DNA of 64,000 nucleotides from Succinivibrionaceae bacterium (lineage in GTDB: Bacteria; Pseudomonadota; Gammaproteobacteria; Enterobacterales; Succinivibrionaceae). Of this stretch, positions 1,986 to 21,605 are shown piece by piece. Both the position numbers and the translations under genes were made by a program. The notes below the pieces were generated by a model. That model saw only the letters and a program-made list of their open reading frames with translations. It searched no databases and was not told where the DNA came from. The first letter of the stretch is position 1; each line of letters starts with the position of its first letter. Location: the NCBI GenBank assembly GCA_017480795.1, contig JAFURY010000049.1, positions 2 through 64,001 on the forward strand, given 5' to 3'.

Positions 1986-4900
1986 ATGTCGTACCAGCCA
2001 GGAATCCTCATCCCCATGAACAGCCCTCAAGCTTCCATCAGCAACGATCCTGCAGCCCGCAAAACGGCGGAAAGCGCTTACATCGCCTCCCTGCTGGAGC
2101 GACTCTCAATACTCACCGAAGAAAACCTTGCTCTCAGGCGGCAGCTGCTGGATCTTGGAGCGACGCCGGCGGCGCCTCCTGTCCGGGCGCCAGGCGCGCC
2201 CCGCGCCATGCCTCCAGGATATGAGGGATATTTCCCGACAGCGATCGACTCTCCTCCGCCAGAGCCCGACTCTCCTCCGCCAGGGCTCTTCTTTACTCAG
2301 CCTCGGCTCGACTCTCCTCCGCCGTCACCGCCACCGCCGGATGAACCGCCTCCGTTTTTGCGGCGCTATAACTACGATGCGCGATCCGAAGAAACCCCCT
2401 TCGCTCCCCAACCTGCAGCCGCGCCTGTTGGGCCGGCCGCATGGCCTCGGCAAACGCCGGCCGCGCCGCCGCGGGATCCGGTCGTCCTTCGGCAGTCTCC
2501 GCCTTCCTGCCCCGGCGCCACTATCGACAGAGCAGGCGCCTTGCGACAGTTTCAGGGAGGTTTTCAGTCCGCGCCTGGTTCATTCGCCCGGCAGTCCGGG
2601 CCTGCCCGCCCCGGGACTTCTCCTGCTCCAGGCGGTTCTCAGATCACGCCGCGGCCTCAGATCCCCTGGCCGCAACAGGTTGCGCCTCAGCCTGCGGCCG
2701 CCTCTCCGCATGGCCTGACGGGCTCCGCCGGCTTCGCTCCTCACGCGCCAGCCTTCAGCAATCAAGCGCCATCCTGCACTCCTCCGGCCTCATCTTTTCC
2801 TCCTCATGCGCCAGCCTTCGCGCCATCCGCCTGCCAGCCTGCGCCGACGCCCCAGCAGCTGCAGCTGTTCAAATCGTATTTCAGCGGTCGTCAGGACGTG
2901 TTCGCCAAACGCGGAAAGACCAGATCCGGCGGCAGAGCCGGCTACTTTCCGCAGTGCAAAAACTTCTATCAGGAAGGCTGCCGCCGCAGGGAAGACTCCC
3001 GCTTTCCCTGCAGCGAATGCCCCCTGCACCAGTACCGTCCGCTGGAGGACATGTTTCTCGTCAGGCACCTGATGGGAGCAAGTCCGGATTTCACGGACGT
3101 CATCGGCATCTATCCCATGCTGCCCGACAGCACCTGCCGCTTTCTGGTGTTCGACTTCGACAATCACGAAGCCGCCTCCGGACAGGAGGCGAAAGCAAGA
3201 AAGCTCCCCGCCGCCATCAGAAGCAGGAAGGCAGCGAAAGACGCGTCCCCACCTGCCGCAGCGCAGAGCGTCCCAGACGCCAAGCCCCAGCTCCGGTCTC
3301 AGAGCAGGACGCCGCCCGATGCGGATCAGCTGCTCAGGCAGGAGGTGTCAGCCTTTCTTGCCATCTGCGACGGCGCCGGCATTCCGGTCCTTGTCGAGCG
3401 ATCCCGCTCCGGCCGGGGCTACCATGTCTGGATGTTCTTCACCGAACCCGTTCCCGCAAAACTGGCGCGACAGCTGGGACAGTCCCTCCTTTCAAGAGCC
3501 GCCGCGGAGATCTCTCTGTCAGGCTTCGCCTACTACGACCGCATGATCCCCGAGCAGGACAGCCTGCCCGCCAGAGCCAGAAAGGAAAGCATCGGCAACC
3601 TGGTGGCCCTGCCTCTGCAGGGAGCGAAAATCCCGGAGGGCAACAGCGTCTTCATCGACCGCACCTGGCATCCATATCCGGATCAGTGGCAGGCTCTTGC
3701 CTCCACCGCAAAGCTCACCCCGGGTCAGCTCTCGGCCTTCGTCGGTCTTTTTGGCCAGGCTCCCGAGCTGGGCTGCGACTTCCTGGCGCAAGAAGGGGAG
3801 CCGGCCGCAGGCCAGAGCGCGCTGCGGTTTTCTCATGAAACCGGCACCACCGCAGAAAACGGCGGCGCCGGATCCTCCCTGACGCCAGGCTCGGATCGGA
3901 CCGGATCCTCGGAAGTCCCGTCCCCGCACGCGGGAACGCGGTGCGCGCAAGGCTCCCGCCAGGAGGCCGGCCAGAGCGCAATGGGACTCAAGCCATGGCA
4001 GAAATCCCTGAAGATAGAAGCCTCGGATCTGCTGGCGCCAAAGCTGGAGATCACTCTTGCCGACGGGATCTACCTGCCGCTTGATGCCATGAAACCCCGG
4101 CTTCAGAACCGTCTCAGACGCCTTGCAGCCTACCAGAACCCCCAGTTCTACCAGAAATACAACGCAGGCTTCTCCACCAAAGGCATCCCCCGTATCGTAT
4201 ATCTGGGCTACGATCAGGACGGGTATCTGTGTCTGCCCCGGGGACTGTTGGAGCCGCTGATCCGCATTCTGCAGGATGCCGGCATCCCCTTTGCGGCGGA
4301 GGACTGCCGCGACGGGGGCAACCCGCTGGAGGTGTCCTTTTCAGGCCAGCTGCGTCCCCGGCAGCAGGAGGCGGCGGATGCCCTGCTTCGTCACGACTGC
4401 GGCATTCTTGAGGCAGCCACCGCCTTCGGCAAAACCGCGGTAGGCGCCTGGCTGATAGCAAGGCTTAAAACCTCCGCCCTGATCATCACCCACACCCGGG
4501 CGATACAGGATCAGTGGATGGAGAGTCTACGAAGATTTCTCAGCTTCGGCGGCGCGCAAGCATCCCAACCGGAGACAGCCCCCGCCGAAAGCCCAGGCGT
4601 CGCGCCTCCGGCGAACCTTGCGACACCTGAAGCCGATGCCGCATGCGATACCGAGAAAAAGCCCGGCAGGAAGGCCGCAACTGTCGCCAAAGGCCGCAGG
4701 GACGAGGATCCGAACAAGAGCATGATAGGCAGCCTCAGCGGCGCCGGACGCCGTCTGACCGGCATGGTGGACGTGGTCATGGCCCAGTCCCTGAATTCGG
4801 CGCTGGAGGAGATCCTCTCAAACGGCTACGGCCTGGTCATCGTGGACGAATGCCACCATGCCACCGCCGGAGCCATCGACGGTTTTCTGGACGTCTCCTC

Positions 4901-6287
4901 CGCCCTGCATATCTACGGACTCTCCGCCACCGCCAGGCGCAGAGATCGGCAGGAGATGCGTTTCTTCATGAGCATCGGACCGGTGCTGCACCGCTTTGGC
5001 GCTCTGGAGCAGATCAGAGGGCAGAACATTCCCCACTACGTGGTTCCCCGCTTCTGCGCCGCCTCGGCCCCGGCCGACTTCAATCCACAGAACATGTACC
5101 AGAGCCTTGCCGCCATAGAAGCGCGCAACGCCATGATCATTGCGGACGTGGAGGAATGTCTGAAGCGCCAGCGCACTCCCCTGGTTCTCACCAGGCGCCG
5201 GGAGCACGCCAAATGCCTTGCCAAAAGCCTTGAGGGCGACGATCGCAAGGTGCTGCTGATCCTCGGCGGAGCAACGGAAAAGCAGAGAAGGGAAACACGG
5301 GAAATTCTTGAAAGCGTCGCGAATACGGAAAGCGATGGCGGGAAACTCGCGCTGGTGGCTGTAGACAGCTGCATCGGGGAGGGATTCAACTTTCCGCGGC
5401 TTGACACTCTGTTTCTGACCATGCCGGTCAGCTGGTCCGGAGCCATCATCCAGTACGCGGGACGTCTGCACCGGGAGTACGAAGGCAAGCGGAACGTGAT
5501 CATCTACGATTACGTGGACATTCAGATCCCGCATCTGGAAAGAAGCTACCACCGGCGGATAAAAACCTACCGGCAGATGGGATACCGCGTCGGCGCGGGG
5601 CCCGAGACGGCGCCGACGGACATCCGAAACATCTTCGACATCGGTAGCTGCCGCAGGGCGCTGGTGCAGGATCTTGAAGAGGCGAAGGAGACGGTCCTCG
5701 TCTTCGCGCCGACGCTGGAGGATTCCGCCCGAACGCCCCATGCCGACCCGCCTCCGGCTTCCCATCCGAACGAAAAGACGCCGGAGGCGCCCGGGATCCG
5801 CGAATCCGAATGCGCAGACGGAGACTCCGCTCCGGACATGGGAAGGAATTTGCTCGCGCGCGCGGCAAAAGAGCCGGCCGCGGATGCGTCCCTGCCTGGC
5901 AAAGAACGTCCGGTCTCCAGGGATGACGAAAGCGGAAACATTCCTCCGGATCTGCTTGCGACGCTGGAAGCGATCCAAAGCCGGGGCGTGAAGGTGACCT
6001 TCATAACCTCCGAGGCTCAGAAGCGGTTGCCTGAACGCCTGCTGAAGTCGCAGGCGGCGCACAAAAGGATCAGGGGCATGCACGAAAACCTTGTCATCAT
6101 AGATCGGAGGATCCTGTGGTACGCCGGCGCGGGGTTTCTGTCAGACGGGCCGCGGGATGAAACCGCCATCAGGCTTCCCGATCCGAAATCGGCCCGGGAG
6201 ATGGAGCAGCTGCTGATGACACGCGCCTACCGGCTGCCCGCAGTTCCAGCGACAGGATCCGATATGCGTAATTTTGAACTGTTCTGA
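1986..6287 (+). CDS. Archaeo-eukaryotic primase-polymerase (AEP) / SF2 DExH helicase / PLD-like fusion protein with Pro-rich N-terminus
   Basis: 1433-aa ORF. AEP motifs: GYFPQC..C..CSEC cluster, FLVFDFDNHE (nt ~3141-3170), SRSGRGYHVWMFF (nt ~3409-3441). Helicase motifs: ATAFGKT (nt ~4414), VIVDECHH (nt ~4837), SATARR, QYAGRLHR. C-terminal MHENLVIIDRRILWYAGAGF is PLD-like. The start is uncertain: 1986 or the ATG at 2016. Confidence 0.8.
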   Translation: MSYQPGILIPMNSPQASISNDPAARKTAESAYIASLLERLSILTEENLALRRQLLDLGATPAAPPVRAPGAPRAMPPGYEGYFPTAIDSPPPEPDSPPPGLFFTQPRLDSPPPSPPPPDEPPPFLRRYNYDARSEETPFAPQPAAAPVGPAAWPRQTPAAPPRDPVVLRQSPPSCPGATIDRAGALRQFQGGFQSAPGSFARQSGPARPGTSPAPGGSQITPRPQIPWPQQVAPQPAAASPHGLTGSAGFAPHAPAFSNQAPSCTPPASSFPPHAPAFAPSACQPAPTPQQLQLFKSYFSGRQDVFAKRGKTRSGGRAGYFPQCKNFYQEGCRRREDSRFPCSECPLHQYRPLEDMFLVRHLMGASPDFTDVIGIYPMLPDSTCRFLVFDFDNHEAASGQEAKARKLPAAIRSRKAAKDASPPAAAQSVPDAKPQLRSQSRTPPDADQLLRQEVSAFLAICDGAGIPVLVERSRSGRGYHVWMFFTEPVPAKLARQLGQSLLSRAAAEISLSGFAYYDRMIPEQDSLPARARKESIGNLVALPLQGAKIPEGNSVFIDRTWHPYPDQWQALASTAKLTPGQLSAFVGLFGQAPELGCDFLAQEGEPAAGQSALRFSHETGTTAENGGAGSSLTPGSDRTGSSEVPSPHAGTRCAQGSRQEAGQSAMGLKPWQKSLKIEASDLLAPKLEITLADGIYLPLDAMKPRLQNRLRRLAAYQNPQFYQKYNAGFSTKGIPRIVYLGYDQDGYLCLPRGLLEPLIRILQDAGIPFAAEDCRDGGNPLEVSFSGQLRPRQQEAADALLRHDCGILEAATAFGKTAVGAWLIARLKTSALIITHTRAIQDQWMESLRRFLSFGGAQASQPETAPAESPGVAPPANLATPEADAACDTEKKPGRKAATVAKGRRDEDPNKSMIGSLSGAGRRLTGMVDVVMAQSLNSALEEILSNGYGLVIVDECHHATAGAIDGFLDVSSALHIYGLSATARRRDRQEMRFFMSIGPVLHRFGALEQIRGQNIPHYVVPRFCAASAPADFNPQNMYQSLAAIEARNAMIIADVEECLKRQRTPLVLTRRREHAKCLAKSLEGDDRKVLLILGGATEKQRRETREILESVANTESDGGKLALVAVDSCIGEGFNFPRLDTLFLTMPVSWSGAIIQYAGRLHREYEGKRNVIIYDYVDIQIPHLERSYHRRIKTYRQMGYRVGAGPETAPTDIRNIFDIGSCRRALVQDLEEAKETVLVFAPTLEDSARTPHADPPPASHPNEKTPEAPGIRESECADGDSAPDMGRNLLARAAKEPAADASLPGKERPVSRDDESGNIPPDLLATLEAIQSRGVKVTFITSEAQKRLPERLLKSQAAHKRIRGMHENLVIIDRRILWYAGAGFLSDGPRDETAIRLPDPKSAREMEQLLMTRAYRLPAVPATGSDMRNFELF

Positions 6288-6414
6288 CATGTTCGACTGC
6301 GCTTTCCGGGTATGTTTTCCTGCGTGAACCTTGTAAATCTGTTTTTTTATTGTAGAATTTACTTAGTAATATTACTTTGTTTACATCGTATTCAATCAAC
6401 AATGGAGCGTGTTT

Positions 6415-6678
6415 ATGAAATCCGATTTGGTTACTTGCTCATTTGTCATGGACAGAGACGTCTACAACACTTTCAAAAGCATTGTCTGCAAGCATGGCCA
6501 GAATGTGAAAGGAAACATTGTGAACTACATGAAAAGTGTTATTCAGTACGAAATCCCCAATGCGGACACTATTATGGCCATTCATGAGGTAGAAACTCTA
6601 AAAAAAGACGCAAACAAAAAAGTTTATAGTTCATTCAACGAACTTCTGGAAGATATGGAAACCGACGACGATGAATAA
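6415..6678 (+). CDS. dinJ: RelB/DinJ-family antitoxin
   Basis: Small ORF directly upstream of, and overlapping by 8 nt, a clear YafQ toxin gene. GGAG lies 7 nt before the ATG at 6415; the track start at 6409 is GTG. The tail is acidic (ETDDDE). Family call rests on context and size. Confidence 0.65.
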   Translation: MKSDLVTCSFVMDRDVYNTFKSIVCKHGQNVKGNIVNYMKSVIQYEIPNADTIMAIHEVETLKKDANKKVYSSFNELLEDMETDDDE

Positions 6679-6958
6679 CAAGCCAAAATACGGTATCATT
6701 GCGACCTCATTGTTCAAAAAGGATATTAAGTTGGCTAAAAAACGAGGGTATGACATATCTTTACTAACCTGTGTCGTTGATACTCTTGCCTATGGGCTTC
6801 CATTAAGCGAGAAGTACAAAGATCACAAATTAGTGGGTAACTATAAAGGATGTCGTGAGTGCCACATTACACCAGATTGGCTTCTAATCTATGAAATATC
6901 AAAAAACGACCTTATCCTATATCTTACGAGAACAGGCACGCACAGCGATCTTTTCTAA
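6671..6958 (+). CDS. yafQ: YafQ-family type II toxin (mRNA interferase)
   Basis: 95 aa with the family signature DHKLVGNYKGCRECHITPDWLLIY...LTRTGTHSDLF. Overlaps the upstream antitoxin gene. Confidence 0.85.
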   Translation: MNNKPKYGIIATSLFKKDIKLAKKRGYDISLLTCVVDTLAYGLPLSEKYKDHKLVGNYKGCRECHITPDWLLIYEISKNDLILYLTRTGTHSDLF

Positions 6959-7499
6959 ACTCATCTACCGTTTTTCACACTTGCGTCCATTGTGCACAGC
7001 AGTTCCCATTGCTTCATCTCTATGAAGCACGAAGTCTTTTCGGACTTTTGGTAATAGTTGGAGACAAAACAAAATCCGTTTTTGACTGACATGCATGCAG
7101 ACGGAATTCTTTGGATTTGTTGGCCTGTTGGTGTTGGCCGGATGCTGAAGATGCCGCTCTGTTGGGCGGGCATTCTCAGGAGTGGCTTTGTCGGTTTTAC
7201 GCTTGAACAAGATGCCTGAGCGCCTAGTTTCCGCGGCTGTCATCCGGCGTTCGGCCATCGTAAGTCTTGCCAACGGGGTGGGGATGATCTTCGGGTTCTT
7301 TTTGTTCCGACAGTCTACTTGTTGCTGATTTGATCCGTAGCGACAGGATCTTATTGCCACACTTTCACAATTCAAAAGGCAGCATACTCGCGCCTTTGCG
7401 CCTGGCTTCCTATCAGAGAAAGCTTAACTCGCCCCATCATGGCGCCAGTCAGATGAGCGAATATGCGTCTTGCGGTCAGAATAAGACTTTACGCAAGCG

Positions 7500-7928: not shown

Positions 7929-8789
7929 CTAGCCATTATTCAGAATCTCGTCAAAAAAGAGGCCTTCTCGCCGCCACTGTCTGCAAATTTCGTTAGCCAG
8001 GTTTACGCCTCTGACGCGCCTGGCCCCGCTTGCATCACGAAGAAACAGTCTTTCAAGACAGGATAATTCTATCTCGGCCTCTATCGCAGCATGACTGCAG
8101 GCCTTCTCGGTTTTCGCCACATACTGCTGTCCAAGTTCAAGAGCGGACAGACTCATTACAAGAGCCTTGTCGGTAATATTGCCCAAAAAGAAATTGTCCA
8201 GCACATAGAACATCCGATCATCTGCTATGCACCCGACAACCACGTCATACCCGTCGGCCAAAGTGGAGAAACGCTGGTAAAGTTTGGTGCCTTTTGCAGG
8301 ATCCAATTTACCTCTGTAATAGGCCACCAGCATTGCCCATTGGATATCAGGCGCAATTTGCATAACCCGAAGTCCCGTCAGATCCAGACGGATGACATAG
8401 AACTTGGATTGTTCAAAATCACTGATCAGAGTTAACGGCTGAGAGGGATCTGTTCCCATGTAAAAGCCTTTGCCAAAATCGCAGCGGCTGCGACTTGCGG
8501 GAGCAATCGGTCCTTTTATCCCTGATTTGGAGCCATGATATAAAACCATGCTGTCAGCCACAGGCTTTAAAGAGGACACTACGCTGTCGACCTTTGCAAG
8601 AACAAGATCTTCCAGATTTACTCCCTTGTTCCGGCAAATGTCGTAGAGCAGCATCTGGCAGGCTTTACCTGGACGGGAATGCCCGCGTTCCCACTTGTTT
8701 ACTGTTGCGACTGAGGTTCCGATCATCAGCGCAAGTTGCGTTTGGCTAATATCCAAGCGGTTTCTGATTTCATAAATATATCTTTGCAT
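7929..8789 (-). CDS. XRE-family HTH fused to a DUF3990 domain
   Basis: N-terminus ISQTQLALMIGTSVATVNKWERG is a Cro/C1-type HTH. It is followed by DUF3990 hallmarks: LYHGS, DFGKGFYMG, YDVVVGCIADDRMF, LGQQY. Start taken at ATG 8789 (MQRYIY); the ORF is open to 8900. Confidence 0.7.
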   Translation of the reverse strand: MQRYIYEIRNRLDISQTQLALMIGTSVATVNKWERGHSRPGKACQMLLYDICRNKGVNLEDLVLAKVDSVVSSLKPVADSMVLYHGSKSGIKGPIAPASRSRCDFGKGFYMGTDPSQPLTLISDFEQSKFYVIRLDLTGLRVMQIAPDIQWAMLVAYYRGKLDPAKGTKLYQRFSTLADGYDVVVGCIADDRMFYVLDNFFLGNITDKALVMSLSALELGQQYVAKTEKACSHAAIEAEIELSCLERLFLRDASGARRVRGVNLANEICRQWRREGLFFDEILNNG

Positions 8790-9058
8790 GGGAAGCCTGG
8801 GACATGAGAATTCTTGCTCAGAAATTATAGCGTCAGTTGTACCGCAGGTCGACGAAATGAACTGAACATTTTCGCCCAGACGCGAGGCGTCAACTTGCAA
8901 GCAAGCTCATAAAAGCATCGCAAGCACCTGATGGATAGGAAAACACCATTGACGGTAAAAGCCGAACGAGACCCTAGGCTGAAAAACGTCATCGCGTCGC
9001 GCAAACTATGGCTAAATGAGGAACGGAATAAAAAAAACAGAGAGAGACAGAGTCGAAA

Positions 9059-9146
9059 TGGCGGATAGGCTGAGATTCGAACTCAGGAAGGATTGCTCCT
9101 CGCCGGTTTTCAAGACCGGTGCATTCAACCGCTCTGCCACCTATCC
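9059..9146 (-). tRNA. serT: tRNA-Ser (anticodon UGA), copy 1
   Basis: The reverse complement reads GGATAGGTGGCAGAGCGGTTGAATGCACCGGTCTTGAAAACCGGCGAGGAGCAATCCTTCCTGAGTTCGAATCTCAGCCTATCCGCCA. It has a 7-bp acceptor stem, anticodon loop CTTGAAA (UGA), a long variable arm, a T-loop GTTCGAATC and an encoded CCA. It closely resembles E. coli serT as I remember it. Confidence 0.92.
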
Positions 9147-9166
9147 GCATGGAAAGTTCATGAAGA

Positions 9167-9254
9167 TGGCGGATGGACTGAGATTCGAACTCAGGAAGGA
9201 TTGCTCCTCGCCGGTTTTCAAGACCGGTGCATTCAACCGCTCTGCCACCCATCC
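9167..9254 (-). tRNA. serT: tRNA-Ser (anticodon UGA), copy 2
   Basis: Same 88-nt structure, 20 nt from copy 1. It differs only in the acceptor stem: GGATGGG/TCCATCC versus GGATAGG/CCTATCC. Confidence 0.92.
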
Positions 9255-9862
9255 GCTTTATGAAACGGATGTTATGATAACGAACAACACGTTTTTTGTA
9301 AACAGGTTTTAGCATTTGCTCTGAGAATACTCTGAGCAAACACAGATAACCGGTCGAAATTGATGATTCTATGTTCGCGCAGGATCAAAAGCAAATTACA
9401 CACAAGCCATTCGCATCACTGCTATTTGGAGTTATCTCGCAAGGAAGTTTAAATACTCCTAAAATCAGGCACTCGCAAATTTATGACTCAGGCAGAATAA
9501 CTGAATTTGTATAATTAGGAGAATTCTGGATAATTATTAAAAAAGACATTTTCAGTAGTCACTAAAAGCTGAATTTTAAAAATCAGAAGTTCACACGGAT
9601 TCTTTGAACAAATCTCTATATTAATGGATTACAGATCAACCAAGATCTGTTATAATAGAAAAAGTAGATTGAACTGCTTGAAAACCATCTTAAAATCATG
9701 GATCAGCCGAGTAGAAACAACAGTTCCTACATACCCATAGTAGTCTGTATAGTTGTAAATTCAGTTGCAGACACGTATGAAATAAAGATTAAGAATTTAG
9801 GATGCCGCCATAAATTTGTGAACTAATCTTTAAATCACGCATATGATAAAGGAAATATTTAA

Positions 9863-11083
9863 ATGGGAAAAATACTTGGTTTACGCGTGCAAAATTACGG
9901 ACCCCTAAAAGATATTAAGATGGGACATACGCATGCTGACAAAAACAGCAAGCCGCTGGATGATTTAGTCGCAATAATTGGACCAAGCGGAACAGGAAAG
10001 AGTTCGTTTGCAGATGTATTTGACTTTATTTCAGACTGTCTGAATTCAAATATTGAGACTGCTTGCGACTCTAACAATCGAGGGGGATATTCCCAACTTG
10101 TATCTCAAGGCGCCTCATGCGACATGCAATTCGAGATATGTTACAGGGAAAACAATAATTCTCAGCCAATCACATACGAACTTACAATAGGACCAGATAA
10201 CATTAACCGGCCATGCGTAATATCTGAGCGATTAAGGCAATCTGTCGATAACAGGGAATACGTTCTGACATTTTTATCTCTTGTGGATGGAAAAGGATTT
10301 GCCTATATCGGAAACGAAGGAGGTCAAGATGATGAAACAGGAAATGCGGTTGGAGAAAAAATTGAGATTGAACTTAGTGATACAAAAAAATTAGGTATTG
10401 TCACTCTTGGAGAATTTAAACAATACGAACGCATAAACAAATTTTTACGATTTTTAAAAAGTTGTTTTTTGTGTTATTTTTCTCCAGCCAGCGCTAGACA
10501 AGTTCAGACAACCGCGCCGGCTCCATATCTGAATCGCATTGGCAGCAATCTTAATAATGTTGCGCAGTATATGTATCGCGAAAATCCCAAGAAATTTGCG
10601 GAGGTATTGTCAGAAATTCAAGACAAAATTCCAAACATTACCAGGATTGCGCCAAAAGAAATGCCAAACAAACAGATTGTTTTGGAATTCTATCAGAAAG
10701 GATTTGAGAAGCCCTTCTATTCAAACCGCATGTCGGATGGCACGCTAAAACTGTTCGCATATTATATGCTTATGAACGAGAATAATCCTAGACAGCTGGT
10801 ATTTATAGAAGAACCCGAGAATGGATTATATCACCAGTACTTATCAGATTTGGCCATTGACCTTGCAAATAGTGTCGGAACTGGCTTCTCCAAACAAATT
10901 TTTGTCACCACCCACAGTCCATTTTTCGTAAACGCCTTACGTCCTGATCAAATATGGGTACTAGAAAAAGATAAGACCGGTTTTTCAGTAATTAAAAATG
11001 CAACCGATTACGATTTCGTAAAAGAAATGGTTGAAGAAGGAGCATATTTAGGAGATCTTTGGAATAGTAAATTTTTTGGGTGA
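9863..11083 (+). CDS. ABC-type (AAA_21-like) ATPase, OLD/PARIS/AbiL-class
   Basis: Walker A GPSGTGKSS, signature-like MSDGTLKLF, Walker B LVFIEEPENGLY, H-loop VTTHSPF. AAGGAAA lies upstream of the ATG. The gene is AT-rich compared with the backbone. Confidence 0.8.
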   Translation: MGKILGLRVQNYGPLKDIKMGHTHADKNSKPLDDLVAIIGPSGTGKSSFADVFDFISDCLNSNIETACDSNNRGGYSQLVSQGASCDMQFEICYRENNNSQPITYELTIGPDNINRPCVISERLRQSVDNREYVLTFLSLVDGKGFAYIGNEGGQDDETGNAVGEKIEIELSDTKKLGIVTLGEFKQYERINKFLRFLKSCFLCYFSPASARQVQTTAPAPYLNRIGSNLNNVAQYMYRENPKKFAEVLSEIQDKIPNITRIAPKEMPNKQIVLEFYQKGFEKPFYSNRMSDGTLKLFAYYMLMNENNPRQLVFIEEPENGLYHQYLSDLAIDLANSVGTGFSKQIFVTTHSPFFVNALRPDQIWVLEKDKTGFSVIKNATDYDFVKEMVEEGAYLGDLWNSKFFG

Positions 11084-11095
11084 GAAACATAAAGC

Positions 11096-11746
11096 ATGCA
11101 TTTCCAGTTTCTGGTAGAAGATGTGTCAAGTGCCGTTCTTATAAAAAAGGTTATGGACACAATCATTGGCAAACATATTAAGAACACATATAATTGCAAA
11201 TCATTTAAAGGCATAGGCCATTTTATAAAGAAAAATACGGCAAAAGAAACGCGTACAGGTAAATTGCTGAATGATTTGGCAACCTACATGAGAGGGTTCC
11301 AAAGAAGTTTGCAAGGAATAAGCGCTTCTCTTATCGTTGTTCTCGATAACGATGACAAAGATCCACAAGAATTCCAAAAATCATTACAAAATATTGCTAA
11401 GACAAATTCAATAAATATGGATTATGTTTTCTGTATAGCAGTTGAGGAAGTAGAAGCGTGGTTGTTAGGTGATGAGGCAGCTATACGGAAAGCTTATCCG
11501 GATTATAAGAAGAAGATATTACATGATTATAAACAAGACAGCATATGTGGTACATGGGAATTGTTGGCTGATGTAGTCTATAAAGGCGGTATGCAGGAAA
11601 TTCAGAAACGAAAGATGTCATATATGGAAATAGGTAAACTAAAATCCGAATGGGCAGATAAAATTAGTGACCAAATGACGTTTGAGGTTAATAAGTCTCC
11701 AAGTTTTCAGAATTTCTATAAAGCTATCTGCAATAGGGTAGAGTAG
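11096..11746 (+). CDS. DUF4276-like (TOPRIM-like) protein
   Basis: Starts 12 nt after the ATPase stop. Ordered acidic motifs FLVEDVSS, LIVVLDNDDKD and CIAVEEVEAWLLGDE match my memory of DUF4276 (..veElEAWlLaD..). Confidence 0.65.
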   Translation: MHFQFLVEDVSSAVLIKKVMDTIIGKHIKNTYNCKSFKGIGHFIKKNTAKETRTGKLLNDLATYMRGFQRSLQGISASLIVVLDNDDKDPQEFQKSLQNIAKTNSINMDYVFCIAVEEVEAWLLGDEAAIRKAYPDYKKKILHDYKQDSICGTWELLADVVYKGGMQEIQKRKMSYMEIGKLKSEWADKISDQMTFEVNKSPSFQNFYKAICNRVE

Positions 11747-12331
11747 GAAATGGAAGGCATTTTGAGCGACAAAGTTTTGTCGCAATTGAAATACCAATTA
11801 TTTAATTTGTGAATTAACTGAATAATACAAGTATAAAAATATTTTTCCATAAAACCAACTAATTTGCTGATCTGATAAATCAAAGACTCATATCTATATT
11901 CTCAACAGGAAAACTTTGATTTTGCTTTGAAAAGGGAACATCCAGGCAAGTTTGGAAAAATCATACCGTCGGTTTACGGAAATTTCGTCAGCAACTTTTC
12001 GAAAAAGCTGCTTAAATCAGGCAAAAGCAATCCTGAAAGCCAAGCACGCCGGGTACTTCCGACACCATCAGACATGCCGCTTTGCCCGGCCTGTAGCGCT
12101 TTTGGGCCATAGCAACCACGGAAATGACTCTGCTCCAGCGAACCCTGAACCTCCCGCCGCATTGCGTCGGCAACTCGCCCGCGCCAGCCGAAGCCCGCAC
12201 AGCAGACGCAAGCGGAAGGAGCAACTGCCTGCAGTATAGGGCAAAGATGTCTGACGCACCGAAGTACCTGTTCCCGATAGGCAAATCAGCCAGCCAGCCA
12301 AACCATCAGAGAAAAAAGAGGAGAAAAACGA

Positions 12332-12649
12332 ATGCTGGAAGACATACCCCGCGACAGCGAAGGCTACCTGAAGTCAGACCAGGACTGGAACCGCCAGATT
12401 GCCCAGGAGCTGGCGCAGGAGGAGGAGATAACCCTGACCGACGAGCATTGGGAACTGATAGAGTTCGTGCAAAGTTTCTACCGCGCCTACAACACCACCC
12501 CTGCCATGCGCATGCTGGTCAAGGCGGTAAAGGAGAAATACGGCGAGGAAAAGGGCAACAGCATATATCTTCACCGGCTGTTTCCCAAGGGGCCCGCCAA
12601 ACAGATCTCCAAAATAGGCGGTCTGCCTAAGCCGGTGAAATGCATATGA
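12332..12649 (+). CDS. tusE: TusE/DsrC-family sulfur relay protein
   Basis: 105 aa ending ...[10 protein letters not shown] (conserved C-terminal Cys arm). Internal motif [23 protein letters not shown] lies upstream of the ATG. Confidence 0.85.
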
Positions 12650-19495: not shown

Positions 19496-20329
19496 TCACT
19501 TTGCTTCTGTCAGTTGTCCAAAAAGATCCGAAGCCAAAACCTTCAATGATGTTTTGGCTATGCCGAGCATTATTTCTGCCATCTCGTCCTCGCTCCACTG
19601 GCTCCCGTCTCCCTTGGTATAAATCGAAACAGCCTGAAGCATCAGCAGCATATTGTTGACGGTTGCAAATCTGTTCTGGCAAAGATTAGTGTTGATTGGC
19701 AAACCAAAATTTGATGCGGTCAGCCGATCAAGGCGGTTGATTTTTCCGTCGGTGTAATTCAACGTCACCGTGGTTCCGTCCGGTCTGGTGACAACTATAT
19801 TCTGAGTCAGAAAATTGGATCCTTCTAGAAAAAGAACATAGGGGAAATGTTTTTCGCCAATCATGAAATTGGCAAATTCGCTTATGTTTTTATAGGCCCG
19901 TTCTATTGCATTGCCGGCAGGCATCAAATCGCGATCCTTGTTTTTACCTACCAGCACTCCATTGCGAATATTCTCCATGTCCTTACCCTGCTGCTTGGCT
20001 TCCGACACCAGGACTACCCGCCAGCATCCGTTATCATCTTTAACCTCGATTATTCCGCCATCAGGCCAGATGCTCGAATTCGGAACAAACAACGTCTGAC
20101 CTAGGCTCGGATCGATGCTGCTTAAAACCCGGTTTACCTCATCCTTTGGAAGATCGGGTCTAAATCTGAAGGTCAGACGAGGAAAGCATATTTTCAGACG
20201 TTCCGGCATCATTTGAGACACCTTGCCCACCTTCTTGTCCAGAGATCTGGCCTTCTCATGAAAAATCGATTCATTCGCCTGAGTCTGTTTCTGCTGTTCA
20301 GACAACCTGCCTGACTGACTTACGCTCAT
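19496..20329 (-). CDS. Type II restriction endonuclease, EcoRI/RsrI family
   Basis: Collinear with R.EcoRI as I remember it: GRLSEQQKQ.., SSIWPDGGIIEVKDDNGCWRVVLVSEAKQQGKD, MPAGNAIERAYKNISEFANFM, HFPYVLFLEGSNFLT, INRLDRLTA, SLKVLASDLFGQLTEAK. Its start ATG overlaps the methylase TGA (ATGA). Confidence 0.9.
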   Translation of the reverse strand: MSVSQSGRLSEQQKQTQANESIFHEKARSLDKKVGKVSQMMPERLKICFPRLTFRFRPDLPKDEVNRVLSSIDPSLGQTLFVPNSSIWPDGGIIEVKDDNGCWRVVLVSEAKQQGKDMENIRNGVLVGKNKDRDLMPAGNAIERAYKNISEFANFMIGEKHFPYVLFLEGSNFLTQNIVVTRPDGTTVTLNYTDGKINRLDRLTASNFGLPINTNLCQNRFATVNNMLLMLQAVSIYTKGDGSQWSEDEMAEIMLGIAKTSLKVLASDLFGQLTEAK

Positions 20330-21264
20330 GCAATCCCCCATGTTTTAACAGCAGATATCTGAGTCGTATCCGACACCATGTTGAACTCTGCGCCGGGGTA
20401 GGATGATTTCAGATTTTCCAGATGTTTGCTGAAAAATTCGTGGATCTGCTCATTGCTGTCGCACATGAGGCAATGCCTGCCCAACGGTATGCATGCTCTG
20501 CCCGTTGTTCCGCTACCGGCAAAAAAATCCAGAACCACAGATCCGGGATAGGACATGGATTTAACTATCCGCTCAATGAGTTCGACCGGTTTTTGGGTCG
20601 GATGACCGGTTCTCTCCCTGCTGTTGCCGTTCAACCGGCCAATTTCCCATACATTGGTGGGATTTTTTCCTTTAATGACATTGTCAGGGTTGAGCCGTTT
20701 GTCTCTCAGAGCGTTCTGCAACTGTTCTTCCGAATACGGAACTCTGACCGAATCAAGATCGAAATAGTATTTGTCGGATTTTGCGACCCAGATTATTTCC
20801 TCATGACGGTTGGCAAAATATCTGTAGGCGGACATGCCGTTTTTATAGTGCCAGACAATGGTGTTGATGAGTTTGAATTTGGTGTTGTGACGCATGTAAT
20901 GAATTATGTCAAGCAGATCCCCTGATTTGGCATCGCGGAACTGAATCCCGCCGAATATCGCCATATTTCCGTCTTTGGTCAGAACCCGATACGCCTCGGT
21001 GAGCCACTTTGCGGCCCAATCAATGTAGTTATCGTAAACGTCCCACATGGCCAACTCAAGATTATACGGAGGATCGATACAGATGAGCTGCACTGATTCA
21101 TCCGGCAGTTTTTTCAAAAACTCGCAGCAGTCCATGACCGAAATTGCGATATTGGGTTTTGCCGGAATTTGAAAATAACAATCATTATCGAGCGAGCAAT
21201 CTCTGCTCTGCCGGTTTAAATACATCAGAGCGTGATTGTGGTGTGATCTGTTATGTATCGCCAT
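20326..21264 (-). CDS. N6-adenine DNA methyltransferase, beta class (M.RsrI-like)
   Basis: SVQLICIDPPYNL (DPPY), FANRHEEIIWVAK, RLNGNSRERTGHPTQKP, VLDFFAGSGTTG (FxGxG). Collinear with M.RsrI as I remember it. Start taken at ATG 21264 (MAIHNRSHHN). Confidence 0.9.
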   Translation of the reverse strand: MAIHNRSHHNHALMYLNRQSRDCSLDNDCYFQIPAKPNIAISVMDCCEFLKKLPDESVQLICIDPPYNLELAMWDVYDNYIDWAAKWLTEAYRVLTKDGNMAIFGGIQFRDAKSGDLLDIIHYMRHNTKFKLINTIVWHYKNGMSAYRYFANRHEEIIWVAKSDKYYFDLDSVRVPYSEEQLQNALRDKRLNPDNVIKGKNPTNVWEIGRLNGNSRERTGHPTQKPVELIERIVKSMSYPGSVVLDFFAGSGTTGRACIPLGRHCLMCDSNEQIHEFFSKHLENLKSSYPGAEFNMVSDTTQISAVKTWGIA

Positions 21265-21605
21265 AATTTGAATCCGAGACAATGATACAATGCAAATTGA
21301 ACAATACTGCAATTACGCCAGCCACGAAACACCAACGAATGTCTCGGAGCATGTTTTGCGCAAATGCCGACTGGCGCCAGCAGCCAACGCGAAATTTTCA
21401 TCATGAACTTGCGGTACCAGGCGAAAATTCCATCGGCGCAGGCGAACATATTTATTATACACATTTACGCAACAAAAGAAAACTACGCAGAACAAAAATA
21501 TGAGCCTGACTGCAGAAATGAACCAGAAATCAGTTTCGCATCGCAAGAGACAGACATCAGCAGAAGCTGAAACATCCAAAGACAGATACGCGCAACTTTC
21601 AGACC

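Follow-up and report, generated by a model that had tools for sequence, protein, structure and literature searches.

Positions 9,863 to 11,746 of a 64,000-nucleotide (nt) stretch of the Succinivibrionaceae bacterium contig JAFURY010000049.1 (GCA_017480795.1), which was analyzed at its full length and is called the window here, hold a two-gene cassette encoding an ABC-type ATPase and a DUF4276 protein. The question raised by this locus is whether the pair represents an unrecognized defense system. An earlier note on this DNA had read it as a split-OLD/PARIS-like module and had described the DUF4276 version as uncharacterized, which implied a system without a name. We found that the cassette belongs to a known, catalogued candidate system, within which it falls in a distinct subfamily, and that it is not an unrecognized system. 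The system concerned is almost certainly the PADLOC candidate defense system HEC-01.

The earlier note proved right in all its factual details and in its reading of the architecture. The two genes were confirmed to be co-directional and 12 nt apart, as had been described, which is the adjacent, same-strand arrangement of HEC-01. Both open reading frames (ORF1, 406 amino acids [aa]; ORF2, 216 aa) begin with ATG, and no ORF longer than 69 aa was found inside them in other frames or on the opposite strand (coordinates in Table 1). The guanine-plus-cytosine (GC) content was 0.385 in ORF1 and 0.352 in ORF2 compared to 0.566 for the window, and the GC content at third codon positions (GC3) was 0.34 in the cassette compared to 0.75-0.78 in tusE/dsrC, pgsA, uvrC and ppiD. 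It was noted that the cassette is the lowest-GC 2.7-kb stretch of the window, with a GC content of 0.36 compared to 0.57 and lying approximately 3.9 standard deviations under the mean of equal-sized windows. The GC values also bore out the reported AT-rich non-coding flanks (0.332 for 9255-9862 and 0.272 for 11747-11930). In the 100-nt GC profile, the AT-rich segment extended from about 9450, where GC falls below 0.30, to about 12000, so the right limit lies past the position of about 11930 given before. The cassette, located between tandem tRNA-Ser(UGA) genes and tusE/pgsA/uvrC, is foreign in composition and was horizontally acquired; its foreign origin follows from the GC3 of 0.34 against 0.75 and from the nearest relatives being mostly Bacillota.

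Assignment of the cassette to HEC-01

Both proteins were matched along their full length by PADLOC models of HEC-01. The HEC-01A model PDLC04182 aligned with ORF1 at an E-value of 2.1e-150 (499 bits; residues 1-405, profile positions 1-400 of 406), and the HEC-01B model PDLC04206 aligned with ORF2 at 4.3e-94 (312 bits; residues 1-215, profile positions 1-216 of 219). The models of other systems scored far lower. The cassette already has a name, and in the earlier note's own terms the system is real but not novel. ORF2 was matched in PADLOC by HEC-01 models only. The further PADLOC matches of ORF1 were to AriA (6.9e-26 and 7e-19), AbiLi (8.6e-25) and mad3 (1.8e-14), together with partial matches to PtuA (7.9e-14; residues 264-382) and GajA (4.8e-11; residues 305-372). 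The AriA models behaved as generic AAA_21/AAA_15-like profiles, and HEC-01A scored approximately five times higher in bits (499 compared to 90).

HEC-01, or 'Hma-embedded candidate 01', was described as an ABC ATPase with a TOPRIM protein (Payne et al., bioRxiv 2024, doi 10.1101/2024.01.29.577857; PADLOC-DB v2). The HEC systems were found as genes embedded in Hma, restriction-modification (R-M) and BREX loci (Payne et al., doi 10.1101/2024.01.29.577857; PMC12881386). The DUF4276 version that had been regarded as uncharacterized was both defined and tested by Payne et al. in 2024, and a second test has been published (PMC12881386). In that second study (Nat Commun 2026, PMC12881386), HEC-01 was reported to rank among the candidate systems of highest abundance in some environments, and one cold-seep HEC-01 chosen at random reportedly protected E. 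coli B from one or more of the phages T7, T5 and T4.

The cassette shares with HEC-01 its two-gene order, in which the gene for a DUF4276/TOPRIM-like protein comes after that of an ABC ATPase. HEC-01A of Pseudomonas agarici aligned end to end with ORF1 at 31% identity (2e-61), and HEC-01B of the same pair aligned at full length with the ORF2 family profile (probability 97.8%, 8e-13, approximately 20% identity) with its E, DxD and ExEA motifs in register. These identities place the cassette in a different HEC-01 subfamily, one that has its own PADLOC hidden Markov models (PDLC04182 and PDLC04206) and is centered on gut and rumen Bacillota. Compared to the tested P. agarici HEC-01B, ORF2 is longer (216 compared to 192 aa) and carries the extra conserved motifs KGIGxF...KLLNDL and QDSICGTWE. 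The cassette also differs in being free-standing between tRNA-Ser and tusE and not embedded in Hma, R-M or BREX. To our knowledge, embedding in another defense system is not required by the PADLOC rule for HEC-01. The cassette is a clean, autonomous and recently imported example of the system.

Several other named systems are built from related parts. PARIS likewise places a small Toprim-superfamily nuclease after an AAA_15/21 ABC ATPase, with co-evolving genes, and the logic shared with the cassette is likely that of a sensor ATPase releasing or activating a nuclease. However, the effector of the cassette is DUF4276 and not DUF4435, and ORF2 had no match to DUF4435 in Pfam (E <= 10) or to AriB in PADLOC (E <= 0.01). 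The AbiL and RloA-RloB systems resemble the cassette in the AbiLi match of ORF1, in weak RloB matches of ORF2 and some of its relatives, and in the position of some cassette homologues, like rloAB, between hsdS and hsdR. The ORF2 family is nevertheless DUF4276 and not RloB; the RloB match stayed below its cut-off (E 0.034, 14.8 bits against a gathering score of 31.5) and no AbiLii match to ORF2 was recorded in PADLOC at E <= 0.01.

The MADS system is composed of eight genes, whereas the cassette is an autonomous pair. Its Mad3-Mad4 proteins likewise combine an AAA_15/21 ABC ATPase with a DUF4276 protein, the latter being Mad4 (Menshen paper, PMC12065111). No other mad gene (methyltransferase and others) is adjacent to the cassette, whose neighbors are tRNA-Ser, HTH-DUF3990, tusE and pgsA genes. 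The NCBIfam MAD3 model reached 90.5 bits on ORF1 (1.3e-25) against a cut-off of 420, and ORF2 was not matched by mad4 in PADLOC at E <= 0.01.

Septu, also a two-gene combination of ATPase and nuclease, and the retron PtuA-PtuB pairs provided the best solved-structure matches for ORF1; however, ORF2 had no HNH or PtuB match in Pfam or PADLOC, and only the ATPase fold resembles PtuA. The class 1 OLD nuclease P2 Old and Gabija GajA have the ABC ATPase and Toprim logic in common with the cassette, and the region from Walker B to the H-loop of ORF1 was aligned with P2 Old by hhalign (probability 81%, 1.2e-5). In class 1 OLD the ATPase and Toprim parts are fused, whereas in the cassette they are split into two ORFs. 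For Gabija, the GajA match was partial only, and no GajB-type UvrD-like helicase gene is adjacent. The description of the cassette as split-OLD/PARIS-like is only an analogy of ATPase and Toprim parts; no significant DUF4435/AriB, RloB or OLD-Toprim match was found and the ORF1 model was nearest to PtuA and Rad50.

The ATPase and the DUF4276 protein

ORF1 was assigned by Pfam to AAA_21 (3.4e-26, full profile) and AAA_15 (7e-16). The four motifs of the ABC/AAA_21 set that had been reported for it were all located, namely the Walker A motif GPSGTGKSS at residues 40-48 (nt 9980-10006), the ABC signature region MSDGTLKLF at 290-298 (SDGT at 291-294), FIEEPENGLY at 314-323, which includes Walker B (FIEE, 314-317) with the catalytic Glu, and TTHSPF at 349-354 with the H-loop His at 351. 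Across 46 ORF1 homologues, the residues G40, G43, G45, K46, S47, S291, D292, G293, E316, E317 and H351 were invariant. The AlphaFold2 (AF2) model of ORF1 had a pLDDT (predicted local distance difference test) score of 75 and comprised an ABC head, a beta-rich insert at approximately 88-170 and a disordered stretch at 206-229. ORF1 presents the four motifs in order on an SMC/Rad50-like head fold, as expected of an ABC ATPase.

The ORF1 model was compared to solved structures with Foldseek. Its best PDB matches were PtuA proteins of Septu and of the retron Ec78/Ec83/Eco7 complexes (9nnb, 9e90, 8eea and 8ee4; E 6e-12 to 1e-9) with TM-scores of only 0.35-0.43, followed by Rad50 and cohesin heads. 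AriA, GajA and OLD were absent from the top 50 PDB structure matches of the model, so that, of the solved structures, PtuA and Rad50 are closer to it than AriA. The PDB was also searched by sequence and by profile with the queries ORF1, A1 and A3, and nothing meaningful was returned.

ORF2, judged by its sequence, belongs to a divergent DUF4276 subfamily. Its own match to the Pfam DUF4276 model (PF14103; E 2.6e-6, profile positions 53-188 of 192) scored 28.2 bits, just under the gathering score of 30.2, and the same model matched all 43 close and all 65 distant members of the ORF2 family, with a best E-value of 1.3e-14. The ordered acidic motifs recognized previously were found at residues 5-12 (FLVEDVSS), 81-89 (VVLDNDDKD) and 116-127 (VEEVEAWLLGDE). 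Among 65 cluster representatives with 29-52% identity to ORF2, the only invariant residues were E8 (nt 11117-11119), D84 and D86 (D84-N-D86, nt 11345-11353), E120, W122 and K183. Together with K46 and E316/E317 of ORF1, the ORF2 residues E8, D84, D86, E120 and K183 are thereby defined for mutation.

The AF2 model of ORF2 (pLDDT 86.4) begins with a core of four beta-alpha units, its strands at 2-7, 31-36, 77-84 and 109-115 alternating with helices, and continues into a helical C-terminal half. In this model, E8 follows strand 1, the DxD motif (D84/D86) follows strand 3 and E120 follows strand 4, so that ORF2 shows the Toprim signature, in which a four-stranded beta-alpha core has its conserved Glu behind the first strand and its DxD behind the third. 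HEC-01B has been called TOPRIM (Payne et al., doi 10.1101/2024.01.29.577857) and DUF4276 was placed within the Toprim superfamily (Menshen paper, PMC12065111), in both cases from structure prediction. We consider it likely that ORF2 belongs to the Toprim superfamily, based on its motifs, its model topology and in part the analyses of others.

Additional similarities were observed below significance thresholds. Pfam matches of this kind among the 65 representatives were to RloB in five (best 6.6e-4), to OLD-like_TOPRIM in four (2.8e-3) and to DUF4435 in one (5.4e-3). In a non-significant hhalign alignment with a more diverse ORF2 profile, E8 lined up with the LLVEG motif of P2 Old. The best named match to the ORF2 model in BFVD was a phage RloB-like protein (Foldseek rank 2, probability 0.96, E 1.6e-2). 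It was also noted that a loop at residues 39-53 of ORF2 is strongly conserved within the subfamily and predicted to be disordered, and this loop is a candidate interface.

Pairing, distribution and proposed function

We assessed the distribution of the ORF2 family in one genome per species, with taxonomy taken from the best 80 relatives. ORF2 relatives were found in at least 524 species-level genomes, and an exhaustive profile search returned 1,067 clusters at 50% identity (E <= 1e-3); this breadth stands beside two published HEC-01 assays that disagree. The best 80 relatives belonged mostly to Lachnospiraceae, Oscillospiraceae, Selenomonadaceae and other Bacillota, and also took in Succinimonas, Synergistaceae, Treponema, Akkermansia, Bacteroidota, Myxococcales, Dehalococcoidia and others. 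The best 150 family representatives were 95-352 aa in length, and at such lengths none of them can be fused to the ATPase. The sole relative in the phage collection (55.8% identity; MT836340.1, positions 6364-7008) is carried by a putatively viral contig of 11 kb, unannotated and recorded as 'Bacteriophage sp.', that comes from human feces.

A hypothetical protein encoded by a Succinivibrionaceae metagenome-assembled genome matches ORF2 at 100% identity. All 23 same-species contigs, found through their identical TusE, carried the cassette with identical flanks, which indicates that it is fixed in this population, and no empty insertion site was encountered among them. Outside the species, the closest cassettes had 73.6% DNA identity and 72-80% protein identity, with unrelated non-coding flanks.

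The co-occurrence of the two genes in other genomes, on which the earlier note had made its reading depend, was evident. An ORF1 homologue was found directly upstream of the ORF2 homologue on the same strand in 86 of 87 loci, and the gap between the A and B genes was 8-52 nt in 85 of 87; of the two others, L070 has its pair disrupted, with 241 nt between the genes, and a contig end cuts the remaining locus. The A and B proteins were correlated in their pairwise identities (r = 0.87; maximum of 0.16 in 999 permutations). Together, the obligate pairing and co-evolution show that A and B are passed on, both by descent and by exchange, as one unit, the two genes always moving and evolving jointly. 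Clustering of the neighboring genes in 80 loci revealed no third conserved gene, and the commonest neighbor family (18 of 80) was an ordinary ABC-transporter ATPase.

Type I R-M was the only recurrent defense context among the related loci. The pair was embedded as hsdM-hsdS-[A-B]-hsdR in five of 80 loci (L011, L012, L019, L021 and L045), and type I R-M genes were nearby in L023, L039, L063 and L091. In approximately nine of 80 loci, such genes lay within 10 kb. In L091, which is among the closest relatives (73.5% DNA identity), the pair stands directly before hsdM-hsdS-hsdR-Mrr. By our rough estimate, this association is well above the level of a random gene. At two other loci, close relatives of the cassette adjoin other AAA_21/AAA_13 ATPase modules (442 aa and 155 aa in L094, positions 3752-5544; an AAA_13 protein in L092, positions 1-187), which hints at a clustering of ABC-ATPase defense pairs.

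By analogy with PARIS, OLD/Gabija and Septu/PtuAB, we consider it reasonably probable that the ATPase acts as a sensor controlling a Toprim nuclease in anti-phage defense. In such a model, an oligomer of the ATPase would serve as the sensor and keep the small nuclease inactive, and the variable inserts of the ATPase would recognize a phage-derived cue; an aberrant nucleic-acid structure, or a protein of the anti-restriction or DNA-mimic kind, would be plausible in this role. The binding or hydrolysis of ATP would then license the nuclease, which may bind Mg2+ through E8, D84/D86 and E120 and cut nucleic acid (DNA or tRNA). The cutting would halt phage replication, probably at a cost to the cell (abortive infection). 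For this subfamily, we infer the formation of a complex, the trigger, the substrate of the nuclease and the defense phenotype.

Several observations weigh against this model. Foldseek gave no PDB match to the ORF2 model at E <= 1e-3 and no significant one to a solved Toprim structure; the hhalign comparison of ORF2 profiles with P2 Old was non-significant (probability 2%). Because these fold and profile searches yielded no significant Toprim match, the Toprim assignment rests on motifs, topology and published analyses. The designation of ORF2 as DUF4276/TOPRIM-like is supported by its family matches and motif arrangement, its own Pfam score lying just under the gathering score. The ORF2 family is also rare on phages (one record) and plasmids (seven records), being mostly chromosomal. 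Most of the related loci lie among housekeeping genes with no obvious defense islands, and on this point the reading of the pair as a defense-type module is qualified, whereas the PADLOC models and the type I R-M embedding in some genomes speak for it. In the published assays, HEC-01 of P. agarici NCPPB 2472 failed to protect E. coli MG1655 deltaRM against the BASEL subset or the classic coliphages (Payne et al.), and the protection by the cold-seep system was reported without magnitude or mutants (PMC12881386). Both of these systems are distant from the cassette, as the identities of the P. agarici pair (31% for A and approximately 20% for B) illustrate.

An alternative is that the pair guards R-M in the manner of PrrC or RloAB, monitoring type I R-M or sensing anti-restriction proteins and firing only when restriction is inhibited, and that it later became free-standing in many genomes, this one among them. 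We consider this role unlikely, and it is compatible with the sensor-nuclease model. The placement of the pair between hsdS and hsdR, its occurrence within 10 kb of type I R-M and the arrangement in the close relative L091 point to it, as does the discovery of HEC systems embedded in Hma, R-M and BREX loci, and an R-M-dependent trigger would explain the inactivity in the restriction-deficient E. coli MG1655 of Payne et al. However, the window has no type I R-M gene next to the pair, the nearest R-M genes being an EcoRI-like type II pair 8 kb off, approximately 90% of the related loci have no R-M neighbor, and the pair is conserved as a unit without a third partner. It is similarly doubtful that the subfamily is active in defense by a mechanism distinct from PARIS and OLD, in which a PtuA-like ATPase assembly would be joined by a minimal DUF4276 Toprim nuclease, acting as an R-M guard or a cutter of specific RNA (e.g. 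tRNA), with the 39-53 loop of ORF2 as a latch to the ATPase.

The combination of an ABC ATPase with a Toprim protein is also the logic of RecF-RecR and of JetC-JetD in Wadjet. A non-defense function, either in DNA maintenance of the RecF/RecR-like or Wadjet-like kind (repair, or plasmid and mobile-element control) or as a selfish addiction module, is nonetheless quite improbable. This common logic, the many related loci among housekeeping genes, the negative phage assay of Payne et al. and the presence of the cassette in all 23 same-species contigs found through TusE would agree with such a function. The sporadic, patchy spread across phyla and the foreign composition here argue against a core repair role, however, no JetA/JetB-like partner was seen with the pair, and the ORF1 model lacks a long coiled coil; in addition, R-M operons enclose the pair in some genomes, and one phage assay was positive (PMC12881386). 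Least credible of all is that the cassette is a PARIS system or a direct variant, with an AriA-like hexamer holding an AriB-like Toprim nuclease for Ocr-type release and host tRNA cleavage: true membership was rejected on the effector domain, and the AriA matches of ORF1, the gene order and sizes similar to ariA-ariB, the A-B co-evolution as reported for AriA-AriB (PMC11464382) and the single DUF4435 match among the 65 representatives are outweighed by the generic nature of those AriA matches, by the missing AriB and DUF4435 matches of ORF2, by its size (216 aa, with AriB at approximately 35 kDa), by top 50 structural matches of ORF1 to PtuA, Rad50 and cohesin and not AriA, and by the placement of DUF4276-associated ATPases (MADS3-4) as a separate group in the PARIS paper (PMC11464382).

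Flanks of the cassette and neighboring conflict genes

Table 1. Features of the cassette, its flanks and the surrounding genes, in window coordinates.
Feature	Position	Strand	Basis or remark
HEC-01A, ABC-type (AAA_21/AAA_15) ATPase, 406 aa (ORF1)	9863-11083	+	Pfam, PADLOC, motifs, AF2 model
HEC-01B, DUF4276 protein, 216 aa, predicted Toprim-like metal-dependent nuclease (ORF2)	11096-11746	+	PADLOC, Pfam, AF2
Left copy of 28-nt imperfect direct repeat	9451-9478	.	21/28 identical, exact core AAATCAGGCA; left GC boundary
AT-rich non-coding leader	9479-9862	+	GC ~0.30
AT-rich trailer	11747-12002	.	GC 0.21-0.38
Right copy of 28-nt imperfect direct repeat	12003-12030	.	Right GC boundary, GC climbs above 0.55
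tRNA-Ser(UGA) copy 1	9059-9146	-	Tandem duplicate
tRNA-Ser(UGA) copy 2	9167-9254	-	Tandem duplicate
HAD_SAK_2 ('Swiss Army Knife' RNA-repair) domain protein, 442 aa	191-1519	-	Adjoins TOTE-type protein
TOTE-type archaeo-eukaryotic primase + ResIII/DEAD helicase, 1433 aa	1986-6287	+	PF22548 4.7e-72
Overlapping small gene pair	6409-6678 and 6671-6958	+	GC 0.38 pocket
DUF3791-like protein, 142 aa; HTH_3 + DUF3990 protein, 323 aa	7500-7928 and 7929-8900	-	Abutting, co-directional
EcoRI-family restriction endonuclease + adjacent N6_N4 DNA methyltransferase	19496-20341 and 20326-21312	-	PF02963 3.4e-120

The two copies of the direct repeat lie 2552 nt apart, exactly at both GC boundaries of the cassette. 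This repeat may be an insertion scar, a target duplication or a recombination scar; the observation was made post hoc, and the chance of a repeat falling at both boundaries was roughly 1-2% by an equally post hoc estimate. A recombinase is absent from the cassette. The best promoter-like site 5' of ORF1, at 9628-9656, was TG-extended (ATTACA-17-TATAAT), and a ribosome-binding site (AGGA) was noted approximately 10 nt ahead of the ORF1 ATG. No convincing intrinsic terminator was found in the trailer. An Rfam search of 8900-12400 returned the two tRNAs only, with no retron-like or other non-coding RNA in the 550-nt leader, and the leader and other non-coding flanks showed no conservation in related loci outside the same species.

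The tandem tRNA-Ser genes that had been described alongside the cassette were located, and the two copies are 97% identical, with three differences that all fall in the acceptor stem and amount to one G-U pair and one compensatory change. On the reverse strand, a promoter-like site (9302-9274) probably serves these genes. A tRNA-targeted island was considered and rejected, as the cassette has no integrase and is placed at the 5' (promoter) side of these tRNAs. The tRNA-Ser locus was seen to divide two different imported segments.

The cassette is autonomous within a variable, defense-rich neighborhood around the tRNA-Ser genes, and the first 21 kb of the window are rich in conflict genes. The genes of the TOTE-type and HAD_SAK_2 proteins represent a second, unrelated conflict system with a native GC of 0.63. 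The overlapping small gene pair that follows them is probably a type II toxin-antitoxin module, since a same-species locus (L088) labels the 95-aa product as a YafQ/ParE toxin. On the 3' side of the tRNA-Ser genes, the DUF3791-like and HTH_3-DUF3990 genes (GC 0.49) form another PADLOC candidate two-gene system, in which the HTH_3-DUF3990 protein was matched by PDC-M13B (6.5e-18) and PDC-M42A (3.5e-11) and the DUF3791-like protein by PDC-M42B (8.9e-7). The EcoRI-like type II R-M pair was also compositionally foreign, with a GC of 0.46.

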